A stretch of DNA of 64,000 bases from a virus. The DNA lies in IMG/VR virus record IMGVR_UViG_3300020185_004014, positions 2,620 through 66,619 of that record; one strand, written 5' to 3'. The translations under genes and the position numbers were made by a program. Shown here one piece after another: positions 17,360 through 63,923 of the stretch (the first letter of the stretch is position 1; each line of letters opens with the position of its first letter). The notes beneath the pieces were generated by a model. The model saw nothing but the letters and a program-made list of their open reading frames with translations. It searched no databases and was not told the origin of the DNA.

Positions 17360-17381
17360 TCTTAAAAAAATATTTAAAATT

Positions 17382-17409
17382 AAGCTTGGCTTCGGTCAAG
17401 CTTTTTTTT
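17382..17409 (+). terminator. intrinsic terminator with C(UUCG)G tetraloop
   Basis: AAGCTTGGC-TTCG-GTCAAGCTT followed by a T-run. Confidence 0.85.
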
Positions 17410-17416
17410 ATATTTA
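17385..17416 (+). promoter_or_regulatory. sigma70-type promoter overlapping the terminator, upstream of ssb
   Basis: CTTG-N20-TATATTTA. Confidence 0.55.
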
Positions 17417-17445
17417 GTAAAAGTTATATTTTAAACAGTTACATT

Positions 17446-24641: not shown

Positions 24642-24661
24642 GAAGTAAACAATTAACTTGT

Positions 24662-24704
24662 GAGGGTCTAATCAGTTATAAAATACTGGTTAGACCCTCT
24701 TTTT
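24662..24704 (+). terminator. intrinsic terminator
   Basis: GAGGGTCTAATCAGT-loop-ACTGGTTAGACCCTC followed by TTTTT. Confidence 0.85.
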
Positions 24705-24716
24705 ATCTAAAAATAA

Positions 24717-26167: not shown

Positions 26168-26199
26168 TTTGGGAACTTAAATTTTATTTCGTATATTCA
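26168..26199 (+). promoter_or_regulatory. sigma70-type promoter, likely leaderless
   Basis: TTTG-N20-TATATTCA ending 4 nt before ATG 26204. Confidence 0.65.
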
Positions 26200-27519: not shown

Positions 27520-28313
27520 AAAAACAAGCAGTACTATCATTAAGTGGAGGTATGGATAGCTCCACTGTGTTACTTAGGTTATTGGCGGATGGCTATGAAG
27601 TAACAGCACTATCCTTTGACTATGGGCAGAAACACAGAGTAGAACTTGAACGAGCCCAAGCACTAGTAGATTATCTTAACGATAATGGTCAAAATGTAAA
27701 ATATGGAACTATTAAGCTTGATGGTTTGGCTCCTATGCTCAACAGTGCCCTTGTAGAAGGTGGTGATGAAGTACCTGAAGGTCACTATGAGCAAGAAAAC
27801 ATGAAAGAAACAGTTGTTCCTAACCGCAACAAAATATTTTCTTCAATTATTCAAGCAGTAGCATTATCAATAGCAAATGAAAAAAATACAGAGGTCCATA
27901 TTGCGATGGGTATTCATGCAGGTGATCACGCAATTTACCCTGATTGCAGACAAGAATTCAGGGACGCTGACTATACAGCCTTCACCGAAGGCAATTGGGA
28001 CGCTGAGCGCGTTAGCTATGTTACCCCTTATCTTAATGGGGACAAGTATGATATCTTGGTCGACGGGGCCAAGTGCTGCAACGAATTGGGGTTACAATTT
28101 GGAAGCGTTTATAAGAACACAAATACTAGTTACAAGCCCATTAATATTGATGGTACTTGGTACAGCGATTATAAATCTGCTTCATCGGTGGAAAGGGTTG
28201 AAGCTTTTCTCAAATTGGGAAAACCAGATCCGGTATCATATGCTGATGAATCAGGACCTGTTACCTGGGACGTTGTACAGAAGCATGTTAAAAACATTTT
28301 AGCTGAAGCCTAA
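27516..28313 (+). CDS. queC: 7-cyano-7-deazaguanine synthase
   Basis: SGGMDS, FDYGQKH, VPNRN, YPDCR. Confidence 0.93.
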   Translation: MKKQAVLSLSGGMDSSTVLLRLLADGYEVTALSFDYGQKHRVELERAQALVDYLNDNGQNVKYGTIKLDGLAPMLNSALVEGGDEVPEGHYEQENMKETVVPNRNKIFSSIIQAVALSIANEKNTEVHIAMGIHAGDHAIYPDCRQEFRDADYTAFTEGNWDAERVSYVTPYLNGDKYDILVDGAKCCNELGLQFGSVYKNTNTSYKPINIDGTWYSDYKSASSVERVEAFLKLGKPDPVSYADESGPVTWDVVQKHVKNILAEA

Positions 28314-28771
28314 TGTTTATATCAACTAAAGTATTTGACGGATTTAGCTGTGTGTTCCGTCAAGCTAAAGCAGAAGGTACACATTGTAGATTTCTCCATG
28401 GATATGGAATCAGCTTTAAAGTATGGTTTGAAGGTGAACCCGATGAACGTAATTGGGTTTGGGATTTCGGGGGTATGAAACGTGCTAAAACCGAAATTGA
28501 TGGTATGAGTGCTAAAATGTGGATGGATCATATGTTCGATCACACTATGCTTGTAGCAACTGATGACCCTTTCCTTGAATCATTTAGAAGGATGGATGAA
28601 GCAGGTGTAATCCAACTTAGAGAAATACCAGCAACAGGTGCAGAAAAATTTGCTGAGTATATTTATGGTAAGCTTAACCCATTCGTTCAGGAAGAAACCA
28701 ATGGTAGAGTTAGAGTTAAACAAGTAGAATTTAGAGAACATGGAAAAAACACAGCAATTTATGCTGAATAA
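28313..28771 (+). CDS. queD: 6-carboxytetrahydropterin synthase
   Basis: HCRFLHGY, DFGG, FDH, REHGKNTA. Confidence 0.88.
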   Translation: MFISTKVFDGFSCVFRQAKAEGTHCRFLHGYGISFKVWFEGEPDERNWVWDFGGMKRAKTEIDGMSAKMWMDHMFDHTMLVATDDPFLESFRRMDEAGVIQLREIPATGAEKFAEYIYGKLNPFVQEETNGRVRVKQVEFREHGKNTAIYAE

Positions 28772-28805
28772 ATAAAAGTTAATAATCAAAATCAAAATCA
28801 AAATT

Positions 28806-29441
28806 ATGAAAAATGTTTTAATGGCCCTTGGGTTGGCCTTAACTACCCTAGTTAGTTCTGCACAAACAACAGTTGTAGATATTATTGTAAATAGTGAAGA
28901 TCACACTTTGTTAGAAGCTGCAGTTGTAGAAGCCGGATTAGTTGAAGCTTTAAGTGATACAACAGGTACATTTACAGTATTTGCACCGACTGATAGTGCA
29001 TTTATTGCGTTAGCAACTTCACTTCAACTCGAACCTACTGACCTATTAGAGCTACAAAATTTAACAGATATTCTTTTATATCACGTACTTCCGGAAGTAT
29101 ATTTAGGAGAGGTGCTTCTTCCACCATCAATTAATTCTATGTTAACCACTTTACTCCCTGAAGAACCAATGTACATACAATCAGATGGCATGACTATTAC
29201 AATAAATGGCATAGCTTCAGTAACTGTGGCAGATCTTATTACTGACAATGGTGTTGTTCATGTTATTGATGCAGTTCTTGTACCTAATAGTACCAACTCA
29301 GTATCAGAGCTAGAAAATAAAATCCCACAAAATAATATTTACTACAATATTATGGGTCAAGAAATTGATAGTTATGATCAAATCCCTTTTAACTCCATTT
29401 ACATTAAAAATGGTGAAAAGTTCTTAAAGATCGAAAGATAA
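28806..29441 (+). CDS. fasciclin (FAS1) protein with signal peptide and T9SS-like C-terminal domain
   Basis: Signal peptide ending SSA-Q; TVFAPTDSAF, ILLYHV, NGVVHVIDAVL; tail YYNIMGQEI...IYIKNGEKFL. Confidence 0.85.
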   Translation: MKNVLMALGLALTTLVSSAQTTVVDIIVNSEDHTLLEAAVVEAGLVEALSDTTGTFTVFAPTDSAFIALATSLQLEPTDLLELQNLTDILLYHVLPEVYLGEVLLPPSINSMLTTLLPEEPMYIQSDGMTITINGIASVTVADLITDNGVVHVIDAVLVPNSTNSVSELENKIPQNNIYYNIMGQEIDSYDQIPFNSIYIKNGEKFLKIER

Positions 29442-29442
29442 T

Positions 29443-30216
29443 ATGCTTAAAAGGATAGAAGATTACGATAAAGTATTACCTGTATTAGAGGTATATCGAT
29501 GCGTGCAAAGTGAGGGCTCCCGTTTCGGGCGCCCCACTATTGCCGTTCGAACCACAGGATGCACTCATAGGTGCTACTTTGGTGAAGGTGGATGGTGCGA
29601 CAGTTGGTACACATCAATTCACCCTGAAAAAGGTACATTTACATTTAATGACATTATCAATATTTATGATGAGAACCCTCAAGTAAAAGAGATGATGTTA
29701 ACAGGGGGTTCACCAACAATGCATCCTGCTTTAGTAAATGAACTTACCCACTTTGCCAACGAAAGAGGAATCCTCATTACAATTGAAACCGAAGGGTCTC
29801 ACTTCGTGGAAACGGATTTTCCACTTGGTCTCATATCCCTTAGCCCTAAGTTTTCTAATTCTATCCCTGTTGTGGGTGTTACTACTCCCGGTGGTAAAGT
29901 TGTTGATGAAAGGTTTGTCAAACAGCATAACAAGTTTAGACTCCATTATGAAAATATTCAAAAAATGATCGACTTCCATAGTGACTATCACTATAAACCA
30001 GTGTGGGATGGAACTGATGAAGGTTTAGCCGAAATTGAAGAATTTAGAGTTAAAATGGATATTCCTAAGGACAAAACATTCGTAATGCCAGCAGGTGATA
30101 CAAGAGAAACATTAATTGAAATGTATCCCAAAGTATTTGAGATGGTAGCAGAGCATGGTTATAATATGACTGGTCGTGATCACATTATAGCATATGATAC
30201 AGAACGAGGAGTATAA
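29443..30216 (+). CDS. queE: 7-carboxy-7-deazaguanine synthase (radical SAM)
   Basis: VQSEG...GRPTIAVRTTGCTHRC...WCDS, LTGGSP, IETEG, SLSPK. Confidence 0.9.
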   Translation: MLKRIEDYDKVLPVLEVYRCVQSEGSRFGRPTIAVRTTGCTHRCYFGEGGWCDSWYTSIHPEKGTFTFNDIINIYDENPQVKEMMLTGGSPTMHPALVNELTHFANERGILITIETEGSHFVETDFPLGLISLSPKFSNSIPVVGVTTPGGKVVDERFVKQHNKFRLHYENIQKMIDFHSDYHYKPVWDGTDEGLAEIEEFRVKMDIPKDKTFVMPAGDTRETLIEMYPKVFEMVAEHGYNMTGRDHIIAYDTERGV

Positions 30217-30241
30217 TATCTGAATACAAAATAAAATTGAG

Positions 30242-30266
30242 AAAGGCACCTTTGGGTGCCTTTTTT
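30242..30266 (+). terminator. intrinsic terminator
   Basis: AAAGGCACC-TTTG-GGTGCCTTT followed by TTT. Confidence 0.85.
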
Positions 30267-30275
30267 AATATTTAT
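30267..30275 (+). promoter_or_regulatory. AATATTTAT motif (candidate late promoter)
   Basis: Directly after the terminator, upstream of ATG 30301. Confidence 0.4.
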
Positions 30276-30300
30276 TATAGAACGTTTTAAACAACAAGCT

Positions 30301-32277
30301 ATGAATAAATTATTTACTTTACTTTTACTGTTACTAACTCTTCCCCTTTTTGGACAAGATAGATGTGGAACCGATATATTATTTGAACAACAACTACAAG
30401 ATCCCAAATTTAAACGAAGCTATTTAAAACTTGAAAAATTAGCAAAGAAGGCAGAAGAAGCTAAAAAAGTTTTATCTATGCCTGATCTTCCCATTACAAT
30501 TCCTGTAATAGTTCATGTAATTCACTTTGGTGAACCTTACGGAACTGATTACCATTTACCTGTGGAATTTATACAAGAAGCTTTTGATAATTTAAATGAT
30601 AATTTTGCGGGAGAATTTAGTGATGACCCTACAACAAATACTCAAATAGACTTTTGTATAGCAAATGCTTCTACTGATGGAGAACCTATTGAAGGTATTA
30701 GATATTACGACTGGGATAATTTAGATATAGAGGAGTGGGATGCTACCGCTTTTTATAATAACCATATTGCAGTATCTAATTTATTGGGGTATGATAGGAA
30801 TAATTATTGTAATGTGTTTGTTGCCCCTTTTGGTAGCCCTTTAGGATTTGCTTACCTCCCCTCGTCTAATTTTGGGGTTTTTGTAGGTACTAATGCTTTT
30901 GGTATTACTAATACAGGGAATTATGGGTTAAATAGAACTTTAGTCCATGAAATGGGGCACTATTGTGGATTATACCACACATTCCATCAAACAAATACAT
31001 GTACTCCTACTAATACTAATTGTACATCACAAGGAGATAAAGTATGTGATACACCTATTACTACAGGAAACTTTGGGTGCCCCTTAAATGGGGGTGCTTG
31101 TGGGAATTCTTTAGTAGAGAATTTTATGGATTATACTAATGATGGATGTATGGATAGTTTTACTCAAGGGCAATCCTTAAGGATGTTATCACAACTAGAA
31201 ACCTTTAGACCAGGAGTGGTAAATAATAGTTTGGCATGTGGGGCTATTAATGGAGTAGATGTAGGGGTAAGTGGTTTAGCAGTACCTGATATTGGATGCT
31301 CTAATATTAAAGATATAACTTTTAATTTACAAAATTTTGGGGATAGTATAAGTGAAGCTACTATTAATTATTCTATAAATGGTGAAGATAATTTTATTAC
31401 TTGGATGGGTAATTTAGGCTTTGCTGAAAGTGAGATAGTGACTATACCTAATATTAATATGGGGTATGGTATTGTTGATATAGAGGTTAATGTAGAAGCA
31501 TTAGGTGACGTATATGAAGATAATAATATTAATACCCTCCAAATTAATAATTATGAAGGTACTTTTATAGACATTACTATAGAATTTGATGCTTTACCTT
31601 ATGGATTCGAATGGAGTCTATATAACTCAGATACTGAGGAATTAATTGATGAGGGGGGTTACTATGATAATGAGATATACGCATGTGAGGTTGAAACTAA
31701 CACCTATTGCTTAGAAGAAGGGAATTATGTTTTAGTTTTAGAAGACCTATTCGGAAATGGTATGTTTTACCCTTGTGGGGGTCCAACTTCTATTATAAAT
31801 GGTAATGATACTCTAAACACAGTAACAGGAAATTGGGGAGATGAAGAGATATTACCTTTTTATGTAGGTCCTCCTGACCCTTGCCCCCTATCAGATTGCC
31901 CTTGGGATGTAGATGGGAATGGGTACGTTTGGACTAATGACATACTTGTGATATTACAATATTATGGACTCGAAACAGAATGTAGTCCTTTTGATATTAA
32001 CCAAGATGGTGTAGTAGGAGTTGATGATATATTAGATGCTATTGCTAACTTCAACACAGAATGTACTACTGGTGAATTAACACCTGAAGGGGGATTTGAT
32101 GCTTTTTTGAAAAATGAACAAGAGGGTAAATTAGTAACAACTACTTTATATAACATGATGGGTCAAAAGGTCCAAGAGGGAAACCACCTAGACACAGGTA
32201 TATATATTATAGTTAAAGAATGGAATGTCCCTGAAGTGGGTGTTTTTGTTACTAAAGAAAAAATCTTCCGTGAATGA
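30301..32277 (+). CDS. secreted M43 (pappalysin/ulilysin-type) zinc metalloprotease with dockerin-like repeats and T9SS type A C-terminal domain
   Basis: Signal peptide; RCGT Cys-switch; IPVIVHVI; HEMGHYCGLYHTF; NFMDY Met-turn; DVDGNG/DINQDG EF-hand pair; LYNMMGQKV...TGIYII tail. Confidence 0.9.
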   Translation: MNKLFTLLLLLLTLPLFGQDRCGTDILFEQQLQDPKFKRSYLKLEKLAKKAEEAKKVLSMPDLPITIPVIVHVIHFGEPYGTDYHLPVEFIQEAFDNLNDNFAGEFSDDPTTNTQIDFCIANASTDGEPIEGIRYYDWDNLDIEEWDATAFYNNHIAVSNLLGYDRNNYCNVFVAPFGSPLGFAYLPSSNFGVFVGTNAFGITNTGNYGLNRTLVHEMGHYCGLYHTFHQTNTCTPTNTNCTSQGDKVCDTPITTGNFGCPLNGGACGNSLVENFMDYTNDGCMDSFTQGQSLRMLSQLETFRPGVVNNSLACGAINGVDVGVSGLAVPDIGCSNIKDITFNLQNFGDSISEATINYSINGEDNFITWMGNLGFAESEIVTIPNINMGYGIVDIEVNVEALGDVYEDNNINTLQINNYEGTFIDITIEFDALPYGFEWSLYNSDTEELIDEGGYYDNEIYACEVETNTYCLEEGNYVLVLEDLFGNGMFYPCGGPTSIINGNDTLNTVTGNWGDEEILPFYVGPPDPCPLSDCPWDVDGNGYVWTNDILVILQYYGLETECSPFDINQDGVVGVDDILDAIANFNTECTTGELTPEGGFDAFLKNEQEGKLVTTTLYNMMGQKVQEGNHLDTGIYIIVKEWNVPEVGVFVTKEKIFRE

Positions 32278-33809
32278 AAAAGTTAATATTAATTTTACTA
32301 CTTTTACCCTTTAATTTATTAGGTCAATGTGATGTAGCAATTACTGATGTAAACCTTAATACTTATGAGGTTACTATTGAAGTAATTAACTCTGAAGGAT
32401 GCACAGCTAATGGACCTGGTGGAGTAGATGGTGCTGTAACCATGTTACAGATAGGATACCACTTACCAGAAGCCATTGATCCTAATAATGAAGTTGTAGA
32501 TTTATTAACCCTACCTGATGCTCCTTGTAGCCCCCAATGGGTAGCCAATGGGTTCACTTTAGGAATGGTAGCAAACCAATACTCGGGATGGTGGTATAGC
32601 CCAACAGCAACCGTTACTTTTGACCCGGATTTAATGGGGGATGGTTTGGTAACAGGTGATGTGGTAGTAGTTCCACTTAATCCCCCTGGAGATTATGTAA
32701 ATACCCCATACCCCTTAGCGGAATGTGGTGATGATTTAATTGACTATTGGTTGTCTGAAGGTGAATGTATTGAATTTGTTGTATGGCAGTTAAATTATGG
32801 TGCTACTTGGCATACTGCTAATGGAGGATGGGCTGAAACTGCTAATGGCTACGTGCCTGACCCCTCTACTTACCAAGACCCTAACTGTAATAATTCATGG
32901 TACTTATGTAGAGATGAAAACCCAGGAGCAGCTGTAGCAAACCCTGATTTTTGTGAAACTATTTTAGACGAATGTAACGATCCCATAGCATGTAATTACA
33001 ATGAAAATTGGGGTGAACCTGGTGGGTTTTGTATATATTGTGATACACCTAATGGTGAAGAACTGTGTGAGGAGTATCAAAATGTAGGGGGTTATTGGAA
33101 TTTCTATTTTAATGCTTTTGACTGTTTAGAAGAAACAGAAAATGATACTATCTATATAGAATTACCTCCTGATACTATTATAGTTACTGAAATAGATACT
33201 ATTTATATAGAGTTACCTTCTGATACAATATATGAAATTGATACTCTTATAATTACTGTTACTGAAGTAGATACTTTATATATAGAATTACCTCCTGATA
33301 CTATTACTATAATAGAAATGGATACTCTTTATATAGAGTTACCCCCTGACACAATCATAGAAACTGAATTTATATTTGTAACTGATACTATAGTTGAAAC
33401 TGAATTTATAGTGTCAGTGGATACAGTTTATGTACTTTACACTGATACAGTTACAGTATATGAGTTTATAGAAATAAACTGTGAAACAGGATTACCTTGT
33501 AGTGAATTTAGAAATGAATGTAGTATTTACATACCAAATGCTTTCACCCCAGACAATGATGGGTATAATGATGCTTGGGAAATAGTGTTAGACCCTGAAT
33601 GTTGGACTGATGTTAAAGCTAAAGTAATAAGTAGATGGGGGGATGTTGTATGGGAATCTAACGATCCCAACAATTTAATTTGGAATGGCAGTTATGAAGG
33701 GGGAGATTATTATGTACAAGAAGAAATGTATATGTGGGTGTTTCAAGCACGAAAAAAAGGAACAACTGAAATTAAAGACTTAAAAGGATATATTACAGTT
33801 ATACGTTAA
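32274..33809 (+). CDS. secreted acidic Cys-rich protein with T9SS type B (gliding-motility-associated) C-terminal domain
   Basis: Signal peptide; CNDPIACNY; IYIPNAFTPDNDGYNDAW...SRWGDVVW...WNG...KGYITVIR. Confidence 0.88.
   Translation: MKKLILILLLLPFNLLGQCDVAITDVNLNTYEVTIEVINSEGCTANGPGGVDGAVTMLQIGYHLPEAIDPNNEVVDLLTLPDAPCSPQWVANGFTLGMVANQYSGWWYSPTATVTFDPDLMGDGLVTGDVVVVPLNPPGDYVNTPYPLAECGDDLIDYWLSEGECIEFVVWQLNYGATWHTANGGWAETANGYVPDPSTYQDPNCNNSWYLCRDENPGAAVANPDFCETILDECNDPIACNYNENWGEPGGFCIYCDTPNGEELCEEYQNVGGYWNFYFNAFDCLEETENDTIYIELPPDTIIVTEIDTIYIELPSDTIYEIDTLIITVTEVDTLYIELPPDTITIIEMDTLYIELPPDTIIETEFIFVTDTIVETEFIVSVDTVYVLYTDTVTVYEFIEINCETGLPCSEFRNECSIYIPNAFTPDNDGYNDAWEIVLDPECWTDVKAKVISRWGDVVWESNDPNNLIWNGSYEGGDYYVQEEMYMWVFQARKKGTTEIKDLKGYITVIR
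33144..33360 (+). repeat. four intragenic DT(I/L)YIELP(P/S)DT repeats (stalk)
   Basis: Units start at 33144, 33195, 33270 and 33321 (51-nt spacing within pairs). Confidence 0.85.
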
Positions 33810-36457: not shown

Positions 36458-36460
36458 TAC

Positions 36461-36483
36461 AGGGGGGACGTAAGTCCCCCTTT
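36461..36483 (+). terminator. GC-rich hairpin with GUAA tetraloop (terminator or 5' stabiliser)
   Basis: AGGGGGGAC-GTAA-GTCCCCCTTT. Confidence 0.7.
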
Positions 36484-36533
36484 GTGTCACATAAATACAA
36501 TCCAATTTAATTTTTAACCAAAAACAAAAACAA

Positions 36534-39272
36534 ATGAGACAAATCTCAAAATTTGCTTTAGTGGGAGTTCTTTGCATGATCTCTTCACTATCCTTTGCCC
36601 AAATTACGGGTAAAGTCACTGATGCTACTACAGGCGATGGCCTACCTGGAGCAACAGTTTTAATAGAAGGTAACACTACTGGTATTTCAACCACTGTAGA
36701 TGGTACCTTTAAACTAGATGCTACACCAGAGGGAACTTTGGTGGTCAGCTTTATCGGTTATGAAACTGCTAATTTGACAGCTAAAACTGATATGGGAAAT
36801 ATTTCCTTACAACCTACAGCATTAGGCTTAGCAGCAGCTTCAGTTGTTGCTAATGTAATTGATGTAGCTAAGGTTAGAGAAACCCCTGTAGCTGTATCTA
36901 CAATCTCCCCTCAAGAGATTGCACTAAAAGTAGGAAACCAAGAGTTTCCTGAAATTATGAATTCCACCCCTGGTGTTTATGCTACAAAGCAGGGAGGTGG
37001 ATATGGTGACTCACGTATTAGTTTACGTGGTTTTGACCAACGTAACACATCTTTCCTTATTAATGGTCAACCTGTTAATGATATGGAAAATGGGTGGGTT
37101 TATTGGTCCAATTGGCAAGGTCTAACTGATGTTGCCTCTGGTATCCAAATCCAAAGAGGTTTAGGTGCTTCTAGACTCGCAGTGCCTTCTGTTGGAGGTA
37201 CTGTTTCTATTTTCACTAAAGCTGCTGATAAAGAACAGGGTGGTAGTGTTTCCCAAACCATTGGTAACGATGGTTACACTAAAACTTCTGCTAACTATAA
37301 TAGTGGTAAAAATGAAAACGGATGGGCTACATCTTTCTTGTTAAGCAAATGGGCTGGTAACGGCTATGTTGACAACACCTCAGGAGAGGGTTGGACATAC
37401 TTTGGTGCTGTAGGTTATGAACCAGAAGGATCAAAACATGCCCTTAATTTATCTGTTTTAGGAGCAGGTCAGTGGCACCATCAAAGAGATGTTTGGGTAT
37501 CAATCCGTGACGCTCAAACTTTTGGAGAACAAAATAGTGATGGTATTAATACCCGTTGGAATTCAAATGGAGGTACTTTAAATGGTGAGGAGTTTAGCAT
37601 GCGTAGAAATTTCTATAATAAACCACTTGCTACTTTTAACTGGGATTGGGATATTAATGAAAATCTAGCCCTCAATACTTCACTTTACGGCTCAGCTGGT
37701 AGAGGTGGTGGAACAGGTCCTCGTGGTAAAAATTACAATGTCCACCCTTATAGAAAGGATTTGTATGAATTTATGTACGAGGATAGTATTACACAATTCC
37801 GTAATGAGGATGGTACTATTGATTTTGATGCTATTGTTGCTGATAACCAAGCGGGTGCCAGTGCTGGATATGGAACAGGTGATTCATTGTTAATGGGTAG
37901 TGATTTTTATGGCCAGTTAATTGGTTCTAATGGTTATAATGAAAATGGTGTTTACAAAAGTGGTATGGTTCGTAGAGCTTCTATGAATTCACATGACTGG
38001 GTAGGTGCAATTTCAAACCTCGAATATGATAAAGATAATTGGAGAGCATCTATTGGTTTAGATCTTCGTAGATATAAAGGATATCACTATCGTACTATTA
38101 ATAACTTAATGGGATTTGATGCTTATTACTCTACAGGTAATGATAACAGTAACGGTCAATTTGTTAATACAACTGTTGAAGCTAGCCCATTCCAAAACAC
38201 CGGTTTAAACGGTCCTAAAATTGATTACTACAATGTTGGTAATGTTGGATGGGCTGGTGTCAATGGTTTAGTTGAATACAGTGATGACGATAAATTAACA
38301 GCAGTTGTCCAAGCTGGTCTATCTAACCAATCTTTCCAACGTGAAGATTATTTCGACCAAGCACAAAACCCCATCTCAGAAACTGCCAACTTAACTGGAG
38401 GGTATCTCAAGGGAGGTGCTAACTATAACTTAGATGAGGCTAGTAACGTATTTTTTAATGCCGGCTTTATCTCACGTCAACCTAACTTTGGAGGTGTTTT
38501 CCCAAGCTATGCTAACAATATTAATGACGAACTCCAAAATGAAGAAATTACATCATTTGAGTTAGGATATGGTTATAATAGTGATGTATTAACACTTAAT
38601 GCTAACGTTTATGCTACTACATGGGGTAATAGGTTCCGTTCATTATCTTTGACAAACGCTCAAGGTATTGATGGATTTGCCCAATTTAGGGACATTGACG
38701 TGCAGCATAATGGTGTTGAACTAGAAGGCGTTTATCGTCCAACTAACCGTTTAAAAGTTAAAGGTGCTCTATCTATAGGTGATTGGAGATACACTAAGAA
38801 CTTTGAAGCTGAATTGTTTGATGACCAACAGCAATCTATTGGTACTGGTACTCTTTACACTGAAGGTGCTAAAGTTGGTGATGCTGCTCAATTTGTAGCG
38901 AATGCCGGTGTAGATTATAGAATCGGAAATAATATTAATGTTGACTTAGCCTATAGATTTGTAGATGGGTTATACGCTGATTATGGAATTACTGATTCTG
39001 ATTTTGCTAATCCTGATAACTTAGGTGCTTTGAAATTACCTTCATATGGTTTGGTAGATTTGGGTGCAACAGCTCGTTTTAATCTGTTTGACCACGATGC
39101 TTCATTCAGAGTTAACTGTAATAACTTACTAAATACAACCTATATCGCTGAGTCTAATACTAACATCCATGCTGATGAAAATTCAACTACATGGAACGGT
39201 GTTGACACACAGAACTTTGTATGGTTTGGATTTGGGCGCACTTGGAATGCTTCGTTGAAATACACATTCTAA
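36534..39272 (+). CDS. TonB-dependent outer-membrane receptor (Bacteroidota type)
   Basis: Signal peptide; ITGKVTDA...LPGATV...SFIGY N-terminal domain; plug ETPVAVS...PGVY...LRGF; C-terminal GRTWNASLKYTF. Confidence 0.93.
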   Translation: MRQISKFALVGVLCMISSLSFAQITGKVTDATTGDGLPGATVLIEGNTTGISTTVDGTFKLDATPEGTLVVSFIGYETANLTAKTDMGNISLQPTALGLAAASVVANVIDVAKVRETPVAVSTISPQEIALKVGNQEFPEIMNSTPGVYATKQGGGYGDSRISLRGFDQRNTSFLINGQPVNDMENGWVYWSNWQGLTDVASGIQIQRGLGASRLAVPSVGGTVSIFTKAADKEQGGSVSQTIGNDGYTKTSANYNSGKNENGWATSFLLSKWAGNGYVDNTSGEGWTYFGAVGYEPEGSKHALNLSVLGAGQWHHQRDVWVSIRDAQTFGEQNSDGINTRWNSNGGTLNGEEFSMRRNFYNKPLATFNWDWDINENLALNTSLYGSAGRGGGTGPRGKNYNVHPYRKDLYEFMYEDSITQFRNEDGTIDFDAIVADNQAGASAGYGTGDSLLMGSDFYGQLIGSNGYNENGVYKSGMVRRASMNSHDWVGAISNLEYDKDNWRASIGLDLRRYKGYHYRTINNLMGFDAYYSTGNDNSNGQFVNTTVEASPFQNTGLNGPKIDYYNVGNVGWAGVNGLVEYSDDDKLTAVVQAGLSNQSFQREDYFDQAQNPISETANLTGGYLKGGANYNLDEASNVFFNAGFISRQPNFGGVFPSYANNINDELQNEEITSFELGYGYNSDVLTLNANVYATTWGNRFRSLSLTNAQGIDGFAQFRDIDVQHNGVELEGVYRPTNRLKVKGALSIGDWRYTKNFEAELFDDQQQSIGTGTLYTEGAKVGDAAQFVANAGVDYRIGNNINVDLAYRFVDGLYADYGITDSDFANPDNLGALKLPSYGLVDLGATARFNLFDHDASFRVNCNNLLNTTYIAESNTNIHADENSTTWNGVDTQNFVWFGFGRTWNASLKYTF

Positions 39273-39292
39273 TAGCGTATAATACAATTTTA

Positions 39293-39326
39293 AGAAGGCT
39301 ACTCCCTTAACGGGGAGTAGCCCTCT
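39293..39326 (+). terminator. hairpin after the TonB receptor gene
   Basis: GGCTACTCCC-TTAACG-GGGAGTAGCC; weak U-tract. Confidence 0.65.
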
Positions 39327-39346
39327 AAATTTTATATTTTTACCAA

Positions 39347-40148: not shown

Positions 40149-40844
40149 ATGGAAAATAAAAGAAGAAAGTTGCACAACGATATTGAGTGTGTGCCTGTGG
40201 GTTATGCCAATGGATCAGCAATGGATCGACCCCTTACATCTCATGAAAAGGAGGTAATGATTAATGAAGCAGCAGATGCTTATAGTAAATTTTTAGATGC
40301 CTTAAAATGTGATTGGAGAAACGACCCTAATTCAATGGAAACACCTAAAAGGGTAGCTAAAGCATATGTAAATGACTTATGGGCGGGTAGGTATAACGGA
40401 TTCACAGATATTACGTCTTTTCCTAGTGATGGTTATGACGGTATTGTCATTGAACGTAATATTCCCCTTACTAGTATGTGTTCCCATCATCACCAAACTA
40501 TTAGAGGTGTTGTTCATATTGGTTACGTCGCAGGAGCCGAAGGAAGAGTAATTGGTTTATCTAAACTTAACCGAATTGTAGAACATTTTGGAAGAAGGGG
40601 AGCAATCCAAGAACAACTCACCTCAGCTATCCATGGGGGTGTAGAAAAGGTATGTGAAGGTAATTTAGGAGTTATTGTTACTATAGTTGCTACCCACAAC
40701 TGCGTAAGTTGTAGAGGCATTAAACATTCAGGAGCAGCTATGGTAACAACTAAAGCATCTGGTGTATTTAGAGATGATACAAATCAAGCACGTAAAGAAT
40801 TTTTCGATAGCTTGAAAATTAACAATGGAGGACATCAAATTTAA
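40149..40844 (+). CDS. folE: GTP cyclohydrolase I
   Basis: ETPKRVAK, SMCSHH, GLSKLNR, QEQLT, HNCVSCRG. Confidence 0.95.
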   Translation: MENKRRKLHNDIECVPVGYANGSAMDRPLTSHEKEVMINEAADAYSKFLDALKCDWRNDPNSMETPKRVAKAYVNDLWAGRYNGFTDITSFPSDGYDGIVIERNIPLTSMCSHHHQTIRGVVHIGYVAGAEGRVIGLSKLNRIVEHFGRRGAIQEQLTSAIHGGVEKVCEGNLGVIVTIVATHNCVSCRGIKHSGAAMVTTKASGVFRDDTNQARKEFFDSLKINNGGHQI

Positions 40845-42992: not shown

Positions 42993-44678
42993 ATGTTTAA
43001 GAAATGCTACGCTGAGTATGCTGGTAAGAACCAGTATAAGATACACCTATGGGAGGAGAATGATTACAATATTATTCCTTACCGCGTCCCCGCTTATATA
43101 GAGTGTTCTGAAAATGAAGCCGAATACCAAGGTCTAAAGGGTGAATGGTTAAAAAAGACTTATAACTGGGATAAAGACAATCCACGTCTTCATTTTCATG
43201 ATATGCCTGCTTACCAAAAATTTCTTATTGAAAAATATGGGGTTGATGATAATATATCTAAAGGACACCGTGAAGTATTTTTTGATATAGAGATTGAAAT
43301 GGGTGGGGCACTTACAGAAGAATATATCCAATCTGCTCCCAAACCAGTAACATCAATTGCTTGGTATGATAAAACCCCTGATGAATGGGTTATCCTTATT
43401 TTAGATAAGAAAGGCCAAATTAAACATACTAAGGGGCATAAAGAAATCATCCCTGTAGCTACTGAAGAAGAACTATTAGCCACATTTATTGAGAAGTTTA
43501 GAGAAATTAATCCCGATATTCTCGTAGGGTGGAATAGTGACTATTTTGATATTCCTTATCTCTATTTTAGAATTTGTAATGTGTTAGGGGAGGAATTTGC
43601 TAATGCTTTATCTCCTATAGATGTTGTAAAGGATGAAAGTCAATGGAACCGCAATGGATGGCTTAACATTGCGGGAGTTGAATCACTAGACTATATGAAA
43701 TTACATAAAAAGTTTAGTTTTAGAGATGAACCATCAATGAGGTTAGATGCCATTGGAGAAAAATATGTTAATTTAGGTAAGATTGAGTACGATGGTAATC
43801 TAGATAGACTATTTGAAGATGACATCCAGAAGTTTATTCAATATAACTTTAGGGATGTAGAAATACTTAAAGAACTTGATGAAAAATTTGAATATATTGG
43901 TCTAGTAAAAAACCTATCACATAAGGGTAAACACAACTATGGGGAGGTATATGCTAACACCAAAACCCAAGACGGAGCCATCTCAGCTTACTTGCTAAGC
44001 CAGAACATTATTCCTCCTTCTCGGGATAGAAATCCTATATTTAAAAAAGGGTATGCTGGTGGGTATTTATTTTGCCCCCAGGCGGGTCTTTATAAGTATA
44101 TGTTTGATGAGGATTTAACTTCATTGTATCCTTCTATTATTATGTCCCTTAATATAGGTAAAGAAACTTATGTAGGTAGAATATTAGATTTATTTGATGA
44201 TAGAAATAATCGTTTAGGATTAAATGATTTACAAGCAATGGATCCTGATAAAAAATTATGTGTTGAAAATCCCCAACGCAAACAAACTTATATTGAGTGT
44301 GGTAAAATTATTGAAACTATAACAACTAATAACCTAGCCATATCAGCAAATGGGGTAATGTTTAGAACTGATAAACAATCAGTGCTGTCAACCATACTTG
44401 CTAAATGGTTTGATGAAAGAGTAGAATACAAAGGTTATATGAAAAAAGCATACAAATCTGGTAATAAAGAAAAGGGTGCATTTTGGCACCAACGTCAACA
44501 CACCATGAAAATTTTGTTGAACAGTTTGTATGGTGCAACCGCCCTTGGTAGCTTTAGATATGGAAATGTAATTTTAAGTGAAGCTATAACTTTAAGTGGT
44601 CAACGCATTATTCAAGAGAGTGCTTTATGTGCCAATCGACACATGAACAAAGTAATTAAAAATGAAATAACATTATGA
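42993..44678 (+). CDS. family B DNA polymerase, N-terminal part (3'-5' exonuclease, motifs A and B)
   Basis: FFDIE, GWNSDYFDIPY, YNFRDV, YAGGY, DLTSLYPSII, KILLNSLYG, ITLSGQ; no DTDS. Confidence 0.92.
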   Translation: MFKKCYAEYAGKNQYKIHLWEENDYNIIPYRVPAYIECSENEAEYQGLKGEWLKKTYNWDKDNPRLHFHDMPAYQKFLIEKYGVDDNISKGHREVFFDIEIEMGGALTEEYIQSAPKPVTSIAWYDKTPDEWVILILDKKGQIKHTKGHKEIIPVATEEELLATFIEKFREINPDILVGWNSDYFDIPYLYFRICNVLGEEFANALSPIDVVKDESQWNRNGWLNIAGVESLDYMKLHKKFSFRDEPSMRLDAIGEKYVNLGKIEYDGNLDRLFEDDIQKFIQYNFRDVEILKELDEKFEYIGLVKNLSHKGKHNYGEVYANTKTQDGAISAYLLSQNIIPPSRDRNPIFKKGYAGGYLFCPQAGLYKYMFDEDLTSLYPSIIMSLNIGKETYVGRILDLFDDRNNRLGLNDLQAMDPDKKLCVENPQRKQTYIECGKIIETITTNNLAISANGVMFRTDKQSVLSTILAKWFDERVEYKGYMKKAYKSGNKEKGAFWHQRQHTMKILLNSLYGATALGSFRYGNVILSEAITLSGQRIIQESALCANRHMNKVIKNEITL

Positions 44679-44938
44679 GTTTAAAACCACAATCAATACG
44701 AAATAACGTAAAAATTCTCTGTAATGATGATCCTATCTCTAAACAGGAAATTATAGATATGAGTGCCCTTTGGAGTGAAAAACAAATCATTTTCTTTAAA
44801 AAAATGTTAAAACAGGGAGGTACTGCTAAAATTAATAATACAAAATTTAAAATTATTATTGATGATCCTATTTTAACCTCTAGAGGAGAAAAAGATGGAG
44901 GTATAATACAAGTTCCTGACGCTGATACTAGATTTTAA
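44675..44938 (+). CDS. hypothetical protein between the two PolB parts
   Basis: 87 aa; ATGA and TAATG overlaps with both polymerase ORFs. Confidence 0.7.
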   Translation: MSLKPQSIRNNVKILCNDDPISKQEIIDMSALWSEKQIIFFKKMLKQGGTAKINNTKFKIIIDDPILTSRGEKDGGIIQVPDADTRF

Positions 44939-45864
44939 TGATACACTTAGAAGAAACCCCGTGGTGGATTTGTGATGAGGGTGATTATAACTTCTGTGCC
45001 TATGTGGATACAGACTCTAATTATTTTAATGCTGAACCTCTTTTAAAACATTTATATCCTAATTTTGAGGAAATGAGTGATGAAGAAAAAGATAATGTAT
45101 TAGAACAAGTAGCACTCAAGTACCAAGACATTATCACAGCTGATTATGATAGATTGGCTAGGGATTGTTTTAATATACAAGAGCACCGTCTTGAAATGAA
45201 AACTGAGTGCGTTATTCGTTCTGCATATTTTAGAGCTACCCGTAGATATGCACAGTGGATAACTAAACAAGAGGGTATTGCTAAAGAATCACTTGATGTT
45301 AAGGGACTTGAATTTAAAAAAGCTAATTTTCCCCCTATATTTGGAGAGTTTTTTAATGATATCTTAGAACAGATTCTAAAAGGTGCTGAACAAAAACATA
45401 TTGATAAGTTAATTATGGATTTTAGAAACCATGTTATGTCTAAAGATTTAGATATTGTCCAACTAGGCAACCCAACATCAGTAAAAACACTAAATGAGTA
45501 TGTAGTTCGTAAACCCCGAGCAGGAGAAGTGATGACTGAATTAAAAAAAGGTGCTCCTGTTAATGTCAAAGCAGCAGTAAAATATAATGATTTACTTAAC
45601 TTTTGGGGTATAAAAGACCATAGTGAAATAGTACAAGGTGATAAAATCAAATGGATATACCTAAAAGATAACCCTTACAAAATTGAACAATTAGGATTCC
45701 TAACCTTTGACATGCCAGATAAAATTCGTACATTCCTTGAAGACCATGCTGATAGGAAGAAATCATTTGAGACTATACTACAAAGTAAGTTAGAAAATTT
45801 TTATCGTGATCTTGGTTGGACCCTTAACTTGAACCCTAATATTAACAAATTCTTTAGTTTCTAA
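44938..45864 (+). CDS. family B DNA polymerase, C-terminal part (motif C and thumb)
   Basis: AYVDTDS, RRYA, VKGLE, GDKIKWIYL, C-terminal FFSF clamp-binding-like motif. Confidence 0.9.
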   Translation: MIHLEETPWWICDEGDYNFCAYVDTDSNYFNAEPLLKHLYPNFEEMSDEEKDNVLEQVALKYQDIITADYDRLARDCFNIQEHRLEMKTECVIRSAYFRATRRYAQWITKQEGIAKESLDVKGLEFKKANFPPIFGEFFNDILEQILKGAEQKHIDKLIMDFRNHVMSKDLDIVQLGNPTSVKTLNEYVVRKPRAGEVMTELKKGAPVNVKAAVKYNDLLNFWGIKDHSEIVQGDKIKWIYLKDNPYKIEQLGFLTFDMPDKIRTFLEDHADRKKSFETILQSKLENFYRDLGWTLNLNPNINKFFSF

Positions 45865-46616
45865 TGATATCAAAAAATAAATTACAATCAGTTATCTCTA
45901 AGTACCATCTTGGGGGTAAAGTAGAATCAGTTAAGTGGGTAGTTGAAGGAAATACTTTAACTATTGATTTTATGGCTCCCACTAAAGATATGATAGGTAG
46001 AGTAATAGCATGGGAATTCCCCATTGCCCAAGATGGCACCCTGGCCATTTTTAATACCAGCCAACTTAACAGATTAATGGGGGTGTTAACCGGTGATTTA
46101 GTACTTGATGCTGAAAAAACTAAAGCAGTATTAACTAAACTAAACATCCAAGATGCTAAGTCTACTATTAACTATTCACTTGCTGATCCACTTATGATAC
46201 AAAAAGTAGGTGAAGTAGATGAAAATGTTGAATGGCAAGTAAACGCTACTCTTGAAAATGAAGATTTTCACACTTTTGTTAGAGCAGCAAATGCTATCCA
46301 AGGGAATGAAATTGTAGCCCTTACCCCTACAGAAGATATTGTGGGTAGCAATGTGCTTCAATTTACATTTGGTGAGCGAATGGAGTTTTCCAATAAAGTA
46401 GAATTCCATGTAGCTGCTAACTTTGAGGATAACGTTAGACAGGATAATAAAATCCCTTTCAGTAGCGAAATGTTACGAGAAGTATTTAATGCCAATAAAA
46501 CGTCAGATGAATGTCAACTAAGTTTTACGGATACTGGTCTTTTACGCCTTATATTTAGATCCGAAGATGAAAACATAGACTCTACATACTTCGTTGTACG
46601 AAAAGCAGATTATTAA
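45864..46616 (+). CDS. DNA sliding clamp (gp45/beta-clamp-like)
   Basis: 250 aa, coupled to PolB-C; GLLRLIF...STYFVVR C-terminus; clamp loader nearby. Confidence 0.7.
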   Translation: MISKNKLQSVISKYHLGGKVESVKWVVEGNTLTIDFMAPTKDMIGRVIAWEFPIAQDGTLAIFNTSQLNRLMGVLTGDLVLDAEKTKAVLTKLNIQDAKSTINYSLADPLMIQKVGEVDENVEWQVNATLENEDFHTFVRAANAIQGNEIVALTPTEDIVGSNVLQFTFGERMEFSNKVEFHVAANFEDNVRQDNKIPFSSEMLREVFNANKTSDECQLSFTDTGLLRLIFRSEDENIDSTYFVVRKADY

Positions 46617-46623
46617 TATTTAT
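46615..46623 (+). promoter_or_regulatory. AATATTTAT motif (candidate late promoter)
   Basis: 4 nt before ATG 46628. Confidence 0.4.
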
Positions 46624-46627
46624 TGAC

Positions 46628-46969
46628 ATGCAAAAAGAAGAAACAACATACGGGGAAATGGCATTTGGAACCCCTGCTTGGAAAGTAGGACCTATAGAAG
46701 GTTTTCTTAAAAGAAAATTCCCTAATGAAGATAAAGATATAGATGCTTTTTTATATAATGAAGCCCCTACAACAAATTCTGAAAGATTAGAATACAACGG
46801 GTTTTATAAAGGGTGGGATGGCTCAGATAGTGAAATTCAACCTTTAGAAATGACAGACCTAGAAGCAGAAGCTTATTTTGTTAAGGACTATAATAGGTTT
46901 AAAGAGGAAAAAAACCTAAACGAATGGACAAAGCGCCAATGGCAGCTTCGTGCAGGAATTATTAAATAA
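46628..46969 (+). CDS. hypothetical protein, candidate head-associated protein
   Basis: 113 aa, C-terminal LNEWTKRQWQLRAGIIK. Confidence 0.6.
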   Translation: MQKEETTYGEMAFGTPAWKVGPIEGFLKRKFPNEDKDIDAFLYNEAPTTNSERLEYNGFYKGWDGSDSEIQPLEMTDLEAEAYFVKDYNRFKEEKNLNEWTKRQWQLRAGIIK

Positions 46970-47001
46970 TTTGGTAATTTTCTAAAAGTTTCGTATATTT
47001 A
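46970..47001 (+). promoter_or_regulatory. sigma70-type promoter of hsp20
   Basis: TTTG-N20-TATATTTA with TTCG extension. Confidence 0.65.
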
Positions 47002-47006
47002 TTAGT

Positions 47007-47538
47007 GATCTTAGGACACCAATCTAGTTATCGTATTATTAACCGTCACCTTAGGGGACACAAAACAAAACAAAATGACACATTTAATGTTAAACCCGGA
47101 CTTTGCAAGTCCACTTGACGTACTCGTCAAAAACTTTTTCGACTCACAAGGCAAATTTGAAGCCCCAAGTCGCCCAAACGTAACACATCCCATTGATGTG
47201 TTTGAAGATGAAAACGGTCTTACACTCGAAGTAGCTTGTACCGGCATCGATAAAAAAGACGTAAAAATTAGTATTGAAGGAGATATCCTTAGACTTTCTT
47301 ATGATAAAGGAAAACCCATGCCTAAAAAGGAAGAAAATGGGGTCCGATACTATCATGCAGGTATTAAAAAAAGCAATTTTAATTTAGGCTGGAAAATCTC
47401 TCGTAGATTTAACCTAACCAAATCCAGTGCTGAAATGGTGAATGGTTTACTTGTACTTAGTATTCCTTTTGCTACTGAAGCAAAACCTAAATCAATTACT
47501 ATAAAGTAATCCACTTTAGGGTTGGTGTCCTGAAGATC
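47007..47538. repeat. imperfect inverted repeat bracketing hsp20 (arms 47007-47025 and 47519-47538)
   Basis: GATCTTAGGACACCAATCT pairs with GGGTTGGTGTCCTGAAGATC: 19 bp, one bulge, two G-U. Confidence 0.8.
47075..47509 (+). CDS. small heat-shock protein (Hsp20/alpha-crystallin)
   Basis: PIDVFE, GIDKKDVKISIEGDIL, AEMVNGLLVLSIP, PKSITIK (IxI motif). Confidence 0.92.
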   Translation: MTHLMLNPDFASPLDVLVKNFFDSQGKFEAPSRPNVTHPIDVFEDENGLTLEVACTGIDKKDVKISIEGDILRLSYDKGKPMPKKEENGVRYYHAGIKKSNFNLGWKISRRFNLTKSSAEMVNGLLVLSIPFATEAKPKSITIK

Positions 47539-47552
47539 CCTTCGTATATTCC
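47521..47552 (+). promoter_or_regulatory. sigma70-type promoter upstream of orf-groES-groEL
   Basis: GTTG-N20-TATATTCC with TTCG extension. Confidence 0.55.
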
Positions 47553-47575
47553 CGCATAAAGCAAAAATAAGTTAC

Positions 47576-47829
47576 ATGAATCACATCAAAGACCCCATTC
47601 TGGGAGAATATTTCATCCAAATTGATGATTACAATTACTCAGCGTTTAAAACTATTACGCCTGATAGTGGGATTACGTATGATCATAACATTGGTCATTT
47701 TTCTAGTTTAGGAAATGCCCTTAAAAGGATTGCCGAGCATAAAGTTCGTCAACAATCCTATAGTAGTATTAGAACTTATATTACTGAATTAAATAACATT
47801 TATAACGAATTTAAACAAAACTTTTTGTA

Positions 47830-47830
<1 letters not shown>
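47576..47830 (+). CDS. hypothetical protein
   Basis: 84 aa, coupled to groES. Confidence 0.65.
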
Positions 47831-49739
<1,909 letters not shown>

Positions 49740-63625: not shown

Positions 63626-63711
63626 GCTCGGGTGGTGAAATAGGTAGACACGAGGGACTTAAAATCCCTTTCGCCGAACGGTGAGTGCGGGTTCGAGCCC
63701 CGCCCCGAGTA
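63626..63711 (+). tRNA. tRNA-Leu(UAA)
   Basis: GCTCGGG/CCCGAGT acceptor stem, CT-TAA-AA loop, long variable arm, TTCGAGC T loop; CCA not encoded. Confidence 0.93.
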
Positions 63712-63720
63712 CAAAAGCAT

Positions 63721-63794
63721 GCCCCCTTAGCTCAGTGGATTAGAGCAACGCACTTCTAATGCGTAGGTCACAGGTTCAAGTCCTGTAGGGGGTA
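63721..63794 (+). tRNA. tRNA-Arg(UCU)
   Basis: GCCCCCT/AGGGGGT acceptor stem, ACGCA-CTTCTAA-TGCGT, TTCAAGT. Confidence 0.95.
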
Positions 63795-63843
63795 CTAAGT
63801 TCTTTATGTATTGAGATAAATTAACATTCGTTTGAAATAATAT

Positions 63844-63917
63844 GCGCTTGTAGCTCAGCTGGTTAGAGCGTCCGACTCATAATCGGCAGGTCCTAGGTTC
63901 AAGCCCTAGCAGGCGCA
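63844..63917 (+). tRNA. tRNA with CAU anticodon (Ile2-like or elongator Met)
   Basis: GCGCTTG/CAGGCGC, CCGA-CTCATAA-TCGG; paired G1-C72 argues against initiator. Confidence 0.9.
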
Positions 63918-63923
63918 CTATTT

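Follow-up and report, generated by a model that had tools for sequence, protein, structure and literature searches.

Pairing between the 5' untranslated region (UTR) and the 3' UTR of one and the same mRNA is a known but rare kind of structure; the reports drawn on here describe a handful of such bacterial messages (hbs, icaR and hilD), each from a single organism. In the hok mRNA of the hok/sok system, the 5' end pairs with the 3' end (fold-back inhibition, fbi), producing a closed, stable form of a toxin message that is subject to an antisense RNA and is activated by 3' trimming and refolding. Stems cut by RNase III flank the 16S and 23S rRNAs, excising the product from a longer transcript, and the RNase III sites of T7 early mRNA are local hairpins. 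In the hbs mRNA of Bacillus subtilis, which is shorter than 600 nucleotides (nt), a 14-bp duplex of −19 kcal/mol joining the 5' UTR to the 3' UTR limits cleavage by RNase Y and stabilises the primary transcript, an effect demonstrated by compensatory mutations (PMC5737220). In the Staphylococcus aureus icaR mRNA, the 3' UTR pairs with the Shine-Dalgarno (SD) region and blocks initiation, and RNase III cuts the duplex (PMC3868564). Here we describe a candidate that is new among these cases, a long-range helix predicted to close the message of a small heat-shock gene, hsp20, in a 64-kb stretch of phage DNA (the window; positions 2,620 to 66,619 of IMG/VR virus record IMGVR_UViG_3300020185_004014, a 66.6-kb record that is about half complete). 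The gene is part of a chaperone cluster in which hsp20, an 84-amino-acid open reading frame (ORF; orf84), groES and groEL follow one another in this order.

The two arms of the helix lie on the plus strand on either side of the hsp20 ORF. The 5' arm, GATCTTAGGACACCAATCT (47007-47025), spans the initial ~20 nt of the predicted hsp20 mRNA, and the 3' arm, GGGTTGGTGTCCTGAAGATC (47519-47538), begins 9 nt past the TAA stop codon (47507-47509), so placed that 493 nt separate the arms. Positions 47013-47022 pair with 47522-47531 with 10/10 complementarity. The outer part of the helix adds six pairs (47007-47012 with 47533-47538), with G47532 bulged, and the inner part consists of T47023-G47521 (G-U), C47024-G47520 (C-G) and T47025-G47519 (G-U). 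An earlier note, made from the letters of this DNA, had reported a 19-nt 5' arm paired with this 3' arm through one bulge and two G-U pairs, and we found its coordinates and pairing to be correct. The duplex of the arms taken by themselves has a predicted energy of −29.3 kcal/mol. When the 75 nt upstream were paired with the 50 nt downstream of each of 77 window ORFs, hsp20 came out on top (−31.1 kcal/mol; runner-up, −24.9 kcal/mol), and 5 of 3000 random pairs of window segments with the same spacing matched it. The minimum free energy fold of 47005-47560 includes the helix, with a whole-fold z-score of −4.2 and 0/100 shuffles folding as well, and the core motif has no further copy anywhere in the 66.6-kb record. 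The pairing exceeds chance.

Relatives were gathered by an Hsp20 search, which gave 28 viral-contig loci, and by a GroEL search, which gave 80. Forty-two loci with both flanks were used (the window plus 24 first-set and 17 second-set loci), representing 33 distinct flank pairs; second-set loci on first-set contigs were left out, as were loci cut in or just before hsp20 (L018, L026, L027, L028, L039, L054, L065 and L102). Both arms were present in all 33 distinct flank pairs. The mean column identity was 0.88 for each arm, as compared with 0.66 for third and 0.87 for second codon positions, and RNAalifold predicted the long-range helix from 20 sequences. In the 33-sequence alignment, 94.4% of the 540 cells of a 17-pair helix were paired, a figure that fell to 28-58% when the 3' partner was slid by 1-3 columns. 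Changes on both sides of a pair occurred in 17 cells versus 2.5 ± 1.4 in shuffles, and 0/500 shuffles attained the observed double-change count, percent paired or covariation score. With the 5' region cut at the predicted transcription start site (TSS), the helix had a median length of 20 bp (16-28) and a median energy of −31.3 kcal/mol (−36.4 to −19.1) across the 33 flank pairs; it started at +1 to +9 of the predicted RNA, and on the other side the predicted duplex began 0-8 nt past the stop codon in 32 of the 33.

A structure-anchored table of the 12 core pairs in the same 33 flank pairs located the variation. Pair p8 was A-U in 10, G-U in 11 and G-C in 12, such that a 5' A faced only U (10/10) and a 5' G faced U (11) or C (12). 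Pair p4 was U-G in 16, U-A in 5 and C-G in 6, with a bulged G in 6, and p10 was A-U in 25, G-C in 5, G-A in 2 and A-A in 1. Fewer changes were seen at p11 (C-G 31, U-G 2), p2 (U-A 30, U-G 2, C-A 1) and p3 (U-A 31, U-G 2), and the remaining six pairs were invariant. Mapped on the Hsp20 protein tree, pair states changed 11 times at p8, 11 times at p4 and 4 times at p10, which implies repeated substitution or, more likely, recombined flank types; the pairs stay matched.

More distant relatives carried new letters and kept the helix. In loci whose Hsp20 is 42-47% identical, the arms were CTTTAGGGCGCC/GGCGCCCTAAAG with perfect pairing (L059, L075, L082), CTTCAGGGCGCC/GGCGTCCTGAAG with one G-U (L079, L080) or CTTCAGGACATC/GGTGTCCTGAAG with one U-G (L061), and extra pairs outside the core differed by locus. 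Five farther loci, found in metagenome-assembled genomes and encoding Hsp20 of 38-46% identity, also had complementary flanks of new sequence. The arms of L145 (CTAGGACACGCTAT/ATAGCGTGTCCTAG; also given as AGGACACGCTAT/ATAGCGTGTCCT) differ in sequence and still pair, and in L149 (AAGACTTTAGAGCGC/GCGCTCTAAAGTCTT) a G-C pair that is invariant elsewhere is replaced by A-U. In L146, the two sites differ from one another at 3 of ~13 positions with the pairing complete. Complementarity extends beyond the shared core in a lineage-specific manner, the total staying near 20 bp. The common 5' arm was additionally found in 33 metagenome stretches, several of them the same contigs as in the viral set; 29 had enough downstream DNA, and 25 of these carried the canonical 3' arm. 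Covariation of the arms among phage hsp20 loci had been proposed as a check on the pairing, and it came out positive, with arms that are conserved and compensatory changes at three core pairs plus the one in L149.

The kinds of substitution that the arms accept bear on whether the element acts as RNA or as DNA. Within the 12-bp core, the 33 flank pairs contained 33 wobble cells versus one C-A, and the plus-strand RNA therefore pairs better than the minus-strand RNA would. The plus-strand duplex was the more stable one in 29/33 flank pairs (means of −35.7 versus −29.5 kcal/mol) and in 5/5 of the most distant loci, 34/38 in total, and the duplexes of L145-L149 contained 14 further G-U pairs. Such one-sided tolerance of G-U is not expected of protein-binding DNA sites or of rearrangement repeats, and so favours a long-range RNA helix. 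This agrees with the argument of the earlier note that G-U pairs speak for pairing at the RNA level over DNA repeats, to which the relatives add conservation, compensatory changes and the excess of G-U over A-C. Complementarity, conservation, covariation, strand bias and predicted stability are all observed at these loci, and judging from the comparison of sequences we consider it probable, with good confidence, that the arms form a plus-strand RNA helix under selection.

Both arms adjoin or overlap promoter elements. In the predicted hsp20 promoter (46970-47001, plus strand), which is conserved among relatives, the −33 box TTTG(G) (46970-46974) is joined by a 20-nt spacer to the −7 box TATATTTA (46994-47001). 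The flavobacterial −7 element TAnnTTTG is placed at −12 to −5 in the parts of the reports used here (PMC9723704, PMC6847099). Given this geometry, the −7 box would set the hsp20 +1 near 47006, one base before the 5' arm, in keeping with the earlier claim that the arm starts at about the predicted TSS. Downstream, a promoter-like site of orf84-groES-groEL, GTTG-N20-TATATTCC, has a geometry equal to the TTTG-N20-TATATTTA of the hsp20 promoter; its −7 box occupies 47545-47552 on the plus strand, and by the −12 to −5 placement its TSS would fall at ~47557, which is 19 nt past the end of the 3' arm. At the DNA level, the 3' arm comprises the −33-like TTGG (47521-47524) and most of the spacer of this promoter, so that the overlap with the −33 box reported previously holds as well. 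RNA from the orf84-groES-groEL promoter would not contain the 3' arm, because the predicted start lies past it. Between the hsp20 stop codon and the next gene, we found no terminator-like site (a GC-rich hairpin followed by a T run) on the plus strand, as had been claimed. Terminators of this hairpin and T-run type occur in other gaps of the window (17360-17445, 24642-24716, 30217-30300, 36458-36533 and 39273-39346), and several are directly followed by a TATATTT-type −7 box, unlike the terminator-less hsp20.

The promoters of this region belong to a class, TTTGG-N15-TTCGTATATT, of which the window has five exact copies, all on the plus strand, at 26188, 46990, 47541, 63131 and 63490; the promoter 10-mer was found 17 times with at most one mismatch, versus 8.8 expected. 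The copies at 47541, 63131 and 63490 have TCC-N-GAA in the spacer in common. In addition, a direct repeat (46991-47015 versus 47031-47055, 72% over 25 nt) matches the hsp20 −7 box and CTTAGG with a stretch of the 5' UTR, and may be the relic of a tandem promoter duplication.

How could such a helix act? With no terminator after hsp20 and the 3' arm placed within the promoter that follows, only read-through RNA started at or upstream of the hsp20 promoter would have both arms, and orf84-groES-groEL transcripts from their own promoter would carry neither. In read-through RNA, the hsp20 transcript would pair its first ~20 nt with a stretch of ~20 nt from 9 nt past the stop codon onwards, closing the whole ~0.53-kb hsp20 message in a panhandle of ~20 bp and about −30 kcal/mol. 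We propose that, inside this terminator-less chaperone operon, the helix would delimit the hsp20 message and determine how long it lasts. The double-stranded stem may shield the 5' end and keep out 3' exonucleases; a double-strand-specific RNase of the RNase III type may also cut it, freeing a monocistronic hsp20 mRNA with paired ends. End protection, cutting, or both would uncouple hsp20 from groES and groEL in read-through transcripts. We infer the transcript ends, the formation of the helix in vivo and the nuclease step from the arrangement described above. A role in message ends and lifetime is favoured by the length and strength of the helix, which exceed those in hbs and icaR, by its 5'-terminal location and by its occurrence where a terminator normally sits. 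Taken as one proposal, a plus-strand RNA helix with a role in processing or stability is the account towards which we lean, by a narrow balance; processing or stability as the job of the helix, considered as a claim of its own, is a tentative assignment to which we give slightly less than an even chance.

Marine metatranscriptome data are compatible with such read-through. The runs contain 20-28% of the words sampled from 46600-48200. Contigs of these libraries extend over hsp20, and single ones span its stop codon together with the 3' arm and the promoter that follows (47269-47570 in run X2, 47390-47547 in run X1); an X1 contig (46723-47036) reaches from the upstream gene across the promoter of hsp20 to the 5' arm. 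These data (runs X1, X2, X3 and X5) consist of contigs only and are uninformative on transcript ends or strand; the bridging contigs match a read-through RNA with both arms, and DNA may be present in the libraries. That both arms reside on one RNA follows from promoter geometry, as a prediction with which the bridging contigs are compatible. Peaks of depth at 47032-47085 and 47518-47571 are most simply explained as summed contigs of many relatives and were not used as evidence.

Compared with the described systems, the hsp20 helix most resembles that of hbs, in which a short mRNA likewise has its 5' UTR paired with a stretch past the ORF and which, as far as its published description was used here, provides the closest model. 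The hbs duplex is there internal to the leader and just upstream of a terminator, in a cellular gene of a Firmicute with a strong SD. The hsp20 helix differs in being ~20 bp long with ~−30 kcal/mol, in being located at the predicted 5' end with no terminator and with a 3' arm that is part of the next promoter, and in belonging to a phage of the SD-less Bacteroidetes, where its support is comparative alone. In contrast to icaR, hsp20 lacks an SD and has its 5' arm at a large distance from the start codon, so that no ribosome-binding site is masked. Both complementary segments around the ORF and natural compensatory change, which mark the class of 5'/3'-UTR pairing represented by hbs and icaR, were found at hsp20.

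The likeness to hok that the earlier note had drawn holds in part. The hsp20 5' end does pair in silico with the 3' end of the message, but the ORF encodes an HSP20 chaperone in place of a toxin, and neither an antisense element nor an alternative refolded form was found. With RNase III stems, the helix shares a length of about two turns (median 20 bp, 16-28, in the 33 flank pairs) and, as with the rRNAs, arms that lie on either side of the product, the cleavage of the hsp20 stem being putative. The T7 sites differ from it as local hairpins, and the rRNA stems in that they flank a non-coding RNA. Full-text searches on long-range pairing in phage hsp20, on Flavobacterium phage chaperones and on RNase III or UTR pairing in phage mRNAs returned no description of the element.

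Several observations weigh against this interpretation. The covariation is carried by 3 of the 17 pairs, plus the one more in L149, and five of the 17 are invariant, which is more sequence constraint than pairing alone demands. Given the relatedness of the sequences and the apparent recombination of flank types, the shuffle test can overstate the support; in a test restricted to independent pairs, well-supported branches of the tree offered 2-4 usable pairs, and p was never below 0.25 (median 0.5-1), with none changing in the wrong direction. Defects occur in the core (G-A at p10 in L067 and L068, A-A at p10 in L077 and C-A at p2 in L068), and 4 of the 29 metagenome stretches were defective, two at the terminal pair (C-A at p1 in L112, C-U at p1 in L131), one internally (C-A at p9 in L133) and one by a 1x2 loop (L144). 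The start of the 3' arm is within reach of the terminating ribosome, so that part of the helix should open during translation. The nuclease step is purely inferential, and the window has no RNase III gene. The four RNA runs are represented by assembled contigs, some of which begin ahead of the predicted TSS, and DNA may have been carried over. Lastly, three hsp20-less loci that are identical here (L099-L101) keep a 3'-arm-like promoter sequence directly after the upstream gene. It has no 5' partner (the best upstream duplex reaches −13.3 kcal/mol), and its CCT, invariant elsewhere, reads CTT without compensation. These loci look like a clean deletion of promoter, 5' arm and ORF, and the retention of a partnerless arm-like stretch indicates that the sequence may also serve the promoter.

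This last finding, together with the invariant five of the 17 pairs, is what would be expected if the arms were inverted copies of a DNA operator bound by some regulator of the chaperone genes, one just past the hsp20 start and the other in the promoter spacer of orf84-groES-groEL, allowing joint control and perhaps a DNA loop. Positions just downstream of a start site and in a promoter spacer are classic for operators, and both arms occupy them. Sites that co-evolve with the specificity of a protein could also mimic covariation. The differences between the two sites, however, nearly all preserve plus-strand G-U pairing, as seen in the 33 wobble cells versus one C-A and in the 14 more G-U pairs of L145-L149, and it is the plus strand that pairs better in 34 of 38 cases. 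The sites of L146 differ at 3 of ~13 positions and still pair fully, and complementarity runs past the shared core in a lineage-specific manner to a total near 20 bp. The 66.6-kb record has no further copy, and other hsp20-less relatives (L085, L086 and L089) have a single promoter with an unrelated spacer and no arm or operator-like site at the corresponding position, which links the arms to hsp20. A Pfam scan of the 76 window ORFs found no RNase III, recombinase, transposase or obvious regulator family, including no DNA-binding regulator, which is a weak point against an operator given that many of these ORFs match no family. On these grounds we regard the operator as unlikely.

The CIRCE operator of HrcA, a 9-bp inverted repeat with a 9-bp spacer located near the promoter, was considered as a specific candidate and rejected. 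The arms are 493 nt apart, and local dyads around them are not conserved; the upstream half of the dyad at the 3' site is missing from the clade L020-L025.

If the helix is real RNA, it might still serve another purpose, as a translation switch (a thermometer or an alternative pairing) that sets the output of Hsp20. RNA thermometers, weak local hairpins that mask the ribosome-binding site until mild heat melts them, classically act on small heat-shock genes (ROSE, Synechocystis hsp17), and the hsp20 locus shares with them the gene class and a structured 5' UTR. A local hairpin in this UTR, GUCACC-UUA-GGGGAC (47045-47059, plus strand; internal A-G mismatch, −5.4 kcal/mol), was predicted by RNAalifold and ends 15 nt before the hsp20 ATG (13-16 nt among relatives). 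Weak as it is, it is conserved. Its second pair is U-A in 18, C-G in 6 and U-G in 2 of the 26 main-clade flank pairs, a distant clade has the different stem GAGU(A)GC-UUAG-GCACUC, and L145 has, read by eye, GAG(A)GC-UUCG-GCCUC with a UUCG loop. The long-range helix itself behaves otherwise. The ten core pairs had predicted probabilities of 0.986-1.000 from 4 to 45 °C, whether the folded RNA ended at 47560, ran to 48120 or started at the upstream gene. The duplex is confined to the arm in 25 of the 33 flank pairs, leaving 36-53 nt between the end of the 5' arm and the ATG; in the other 8, the fold adds pairs in the UTR hairpin, 14-18 nt ahead of the ATG. The A-rich leader stays unpaired throughout, and the core helix, which in most relatives is 41-53 nt upstream of the ATG, leaves it untouched. 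Searching Rfam at E values up to 10 returned three chance-level matches (best E above 5) and no thermometer or known cis-element. The suggestion of a thermometer in the earlier note thus found no support in silico, the helix being long-range and very stable and leaving the start region uncovered.

The same note had drawn attention to a second partial copy of the 5' arm, TTAGGGGACAC, which does lie at 47051-47061, 13 nt before the ATG, and had proposed that it competes for the 3' arm. The duplex of this copy with the 3' arm is weak, at −13.5 kcal/mol versus −29.3 for the true 5' arm, and contains an A-C mismatch in 4 of the 26 main-clade flank pairs. The competition was therefore not borne out, and the second copy is better read as the 3' half of the separately conserved local hairpin. 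The position of the 3' arm, 0-8 nt past the stop codon in most relatives, is more favourable to a switch, since ribosomes that terminate there would partly melt the helix and so tie it to translation. Because such ribosomes would get as far as its inner end, the helix may have a role that is translational or coupled to the ribosome. A switch as the main function nevertheless appears improbable to us.

A kissing loop between hairpins formed by the arms themselves was also considered and rejected: such local hairpins are weak (−2.4 kcal/mol for the 5' arm and −8.0 kcal/mol for the 3' arm), and the 3' one is missing in the clade L020-L025.

A more speculative possibility, which we consider doubtful, is a two-in-one punctuation mark, in which the 3' arm serves as DNA in the −33 element and spacer of the groES-groEL promoter and as RNA is captured by the 5' end of hsp20. 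Such capture might end the transcript from afar, as a 'split' terminator hairpin whose upstream half lies 500 nt away; alternatively, the loop might return terminating ribosomes to the start. If this were true, SD-less Bacteroidetes phages would carry a self-contained gene cassette comprising the promoter, the message ends and the next promoter, with no terminator.

Inverted repeats of ~19 bp that bound a segment of ~530 bp also recall invertible DNA, known from the phase variation of Bacteroidetes (invertons) and from the G segment of phage Mu, or the terminal repeats of a mobile hsp20 cassette. The cassette is indeed present or absent among related phages, with 45 of the 80 GroEL-search loci holding hsp20 and L096-L098 having an unrelated gene of ~190 amino acids in its place and no arms, and after a flip the next promoter would retain its TTGG element. 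Yet hsp20 has the orientation of groEL in 45/45 loci, and the place of the cassette is the same in all relatives. The predicted inverted junction had 0 exact matches in metagenome_contigs, where the normal junction had 33, and the four RNA-library runs contained no strand-changing joint and no joints at the arms. No recombinase or transposase family was found among the 76 ORFs scanned with Pfam, in a record that covers only about half of the genome. The differences between the arms, moreover, are of the G-U kind, plus a bulge. Inversion or mobility is, in our view, very unlikely. Least of all do we credit a functionless chance match or a decaying relic of promoter-region duplication, for even though TTCGTATATT is common to the hsp20 promoter and the next promoter and a second, diverged copy of promoter plus CTTAGG lies within the 5' UTR, the arms are as conserved as second codon positions, are kept with compensating changes down to 38% Hsp20 identity and give the top pairing of 77 genes.

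A plus-strand RNA helix with a role in processing or stability therefore remains the reading we prefer for this locus, whose other features are as follows. The window genes are all on the plus strand and closely packed. The hsp20 ORF (47075-47509, plus strand) encodes a small heat-shock protein of 144 amino acids (Pfam HSP20 PF00011, E = 3.5e-9). Its 5' UTR contains, besides the 5' arm and the local hairpin, an AU-rich linker (47026-47044, plus strand) that varies in length among relatives and an A-rich, SD-less leader, ACAAAACAAAACAAA (47060-47074, plus strand), that precedes the ATG and is near-invariant in the alignment of relatives. Downstream of hsp20, and on the same strand, lie orf84 (47576-47830), groES (47830-48117; Cpn10) and groEL (48114-49739).

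By GroEL, the closest named phage is Flavobacterium phage vB_FspM_immuto (60% identity), which has groES with no adjoining hsp20. A DNA search with 46600-48200 gave zero matches in a collection of 50,697 phage records, so that no cultured phage in the collection has the element, and Hsp20 protein found distant matches only in the same collection (31% for Synechococcus phage S-PM2). Bacteroidetes lack SD sequences and favour upstream adenines, according to the portion of the report used here (PMC6847099). Several features of the window fit a Bacteroidetes host, namely the TTTG/TAnnTTTG promoters, the A-rich SD-less leader, a type-IX-secretion C-terminal domain and a TonB-receptor gene.

Elsewhere in the window, host-like envelope genes at 30301-33809 and 36534-39272 encode an M43 peptidase, a type IX secretion CHU_C-domain protein and a TonB-dependent receptor of 912 amino acids, SusC-like with a carboxypeptidase-regulatory-like N-terminus. 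Genes for QueC, a 6-pyruvoyl-tetrahydropterin synthase-like protein, a radical SAM protein and GTP cyclohydrolase I (27516-30216 and 40149-40844) constitute a 7-deazaguanine/queuosine-precursor set, which suggests modified DNA bases. A family-B DNA polymerase (PolB) is apparently split at 42993-45864 into a part of 561 amino acids (exonuclease and start of the polymerase) and a part of 308 amino acids that corresponds to a divergent PolB C-terminal region, with an ORF of 87 amino acids and no family match between them. Three tRNA genes (Leu-TAA, Arg-TCT and Met-CAT) cluster at 63626-63918.

The hsp20 helix is the first candidate for paired message ends that we could find for a double-stranded DNA phage and for Bacteroidetes, in which translation and promoters follow unusual rules. 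It puts one DNA stretch under a double constraint, as promoter spacer and as an arm of an RNA helix. Dozens of uncultured marine flavobacterial phages, which vary the letters and keep the helix, form a natural mutagenesis series, and their variants are a ready-made set of disruptive and compensatory changes for testing what the helix does. If the helix sets the ends or the lifetime of the hsp20 message, the phage would tune one chaperone gene apart from the neighbouring groES and groEL.

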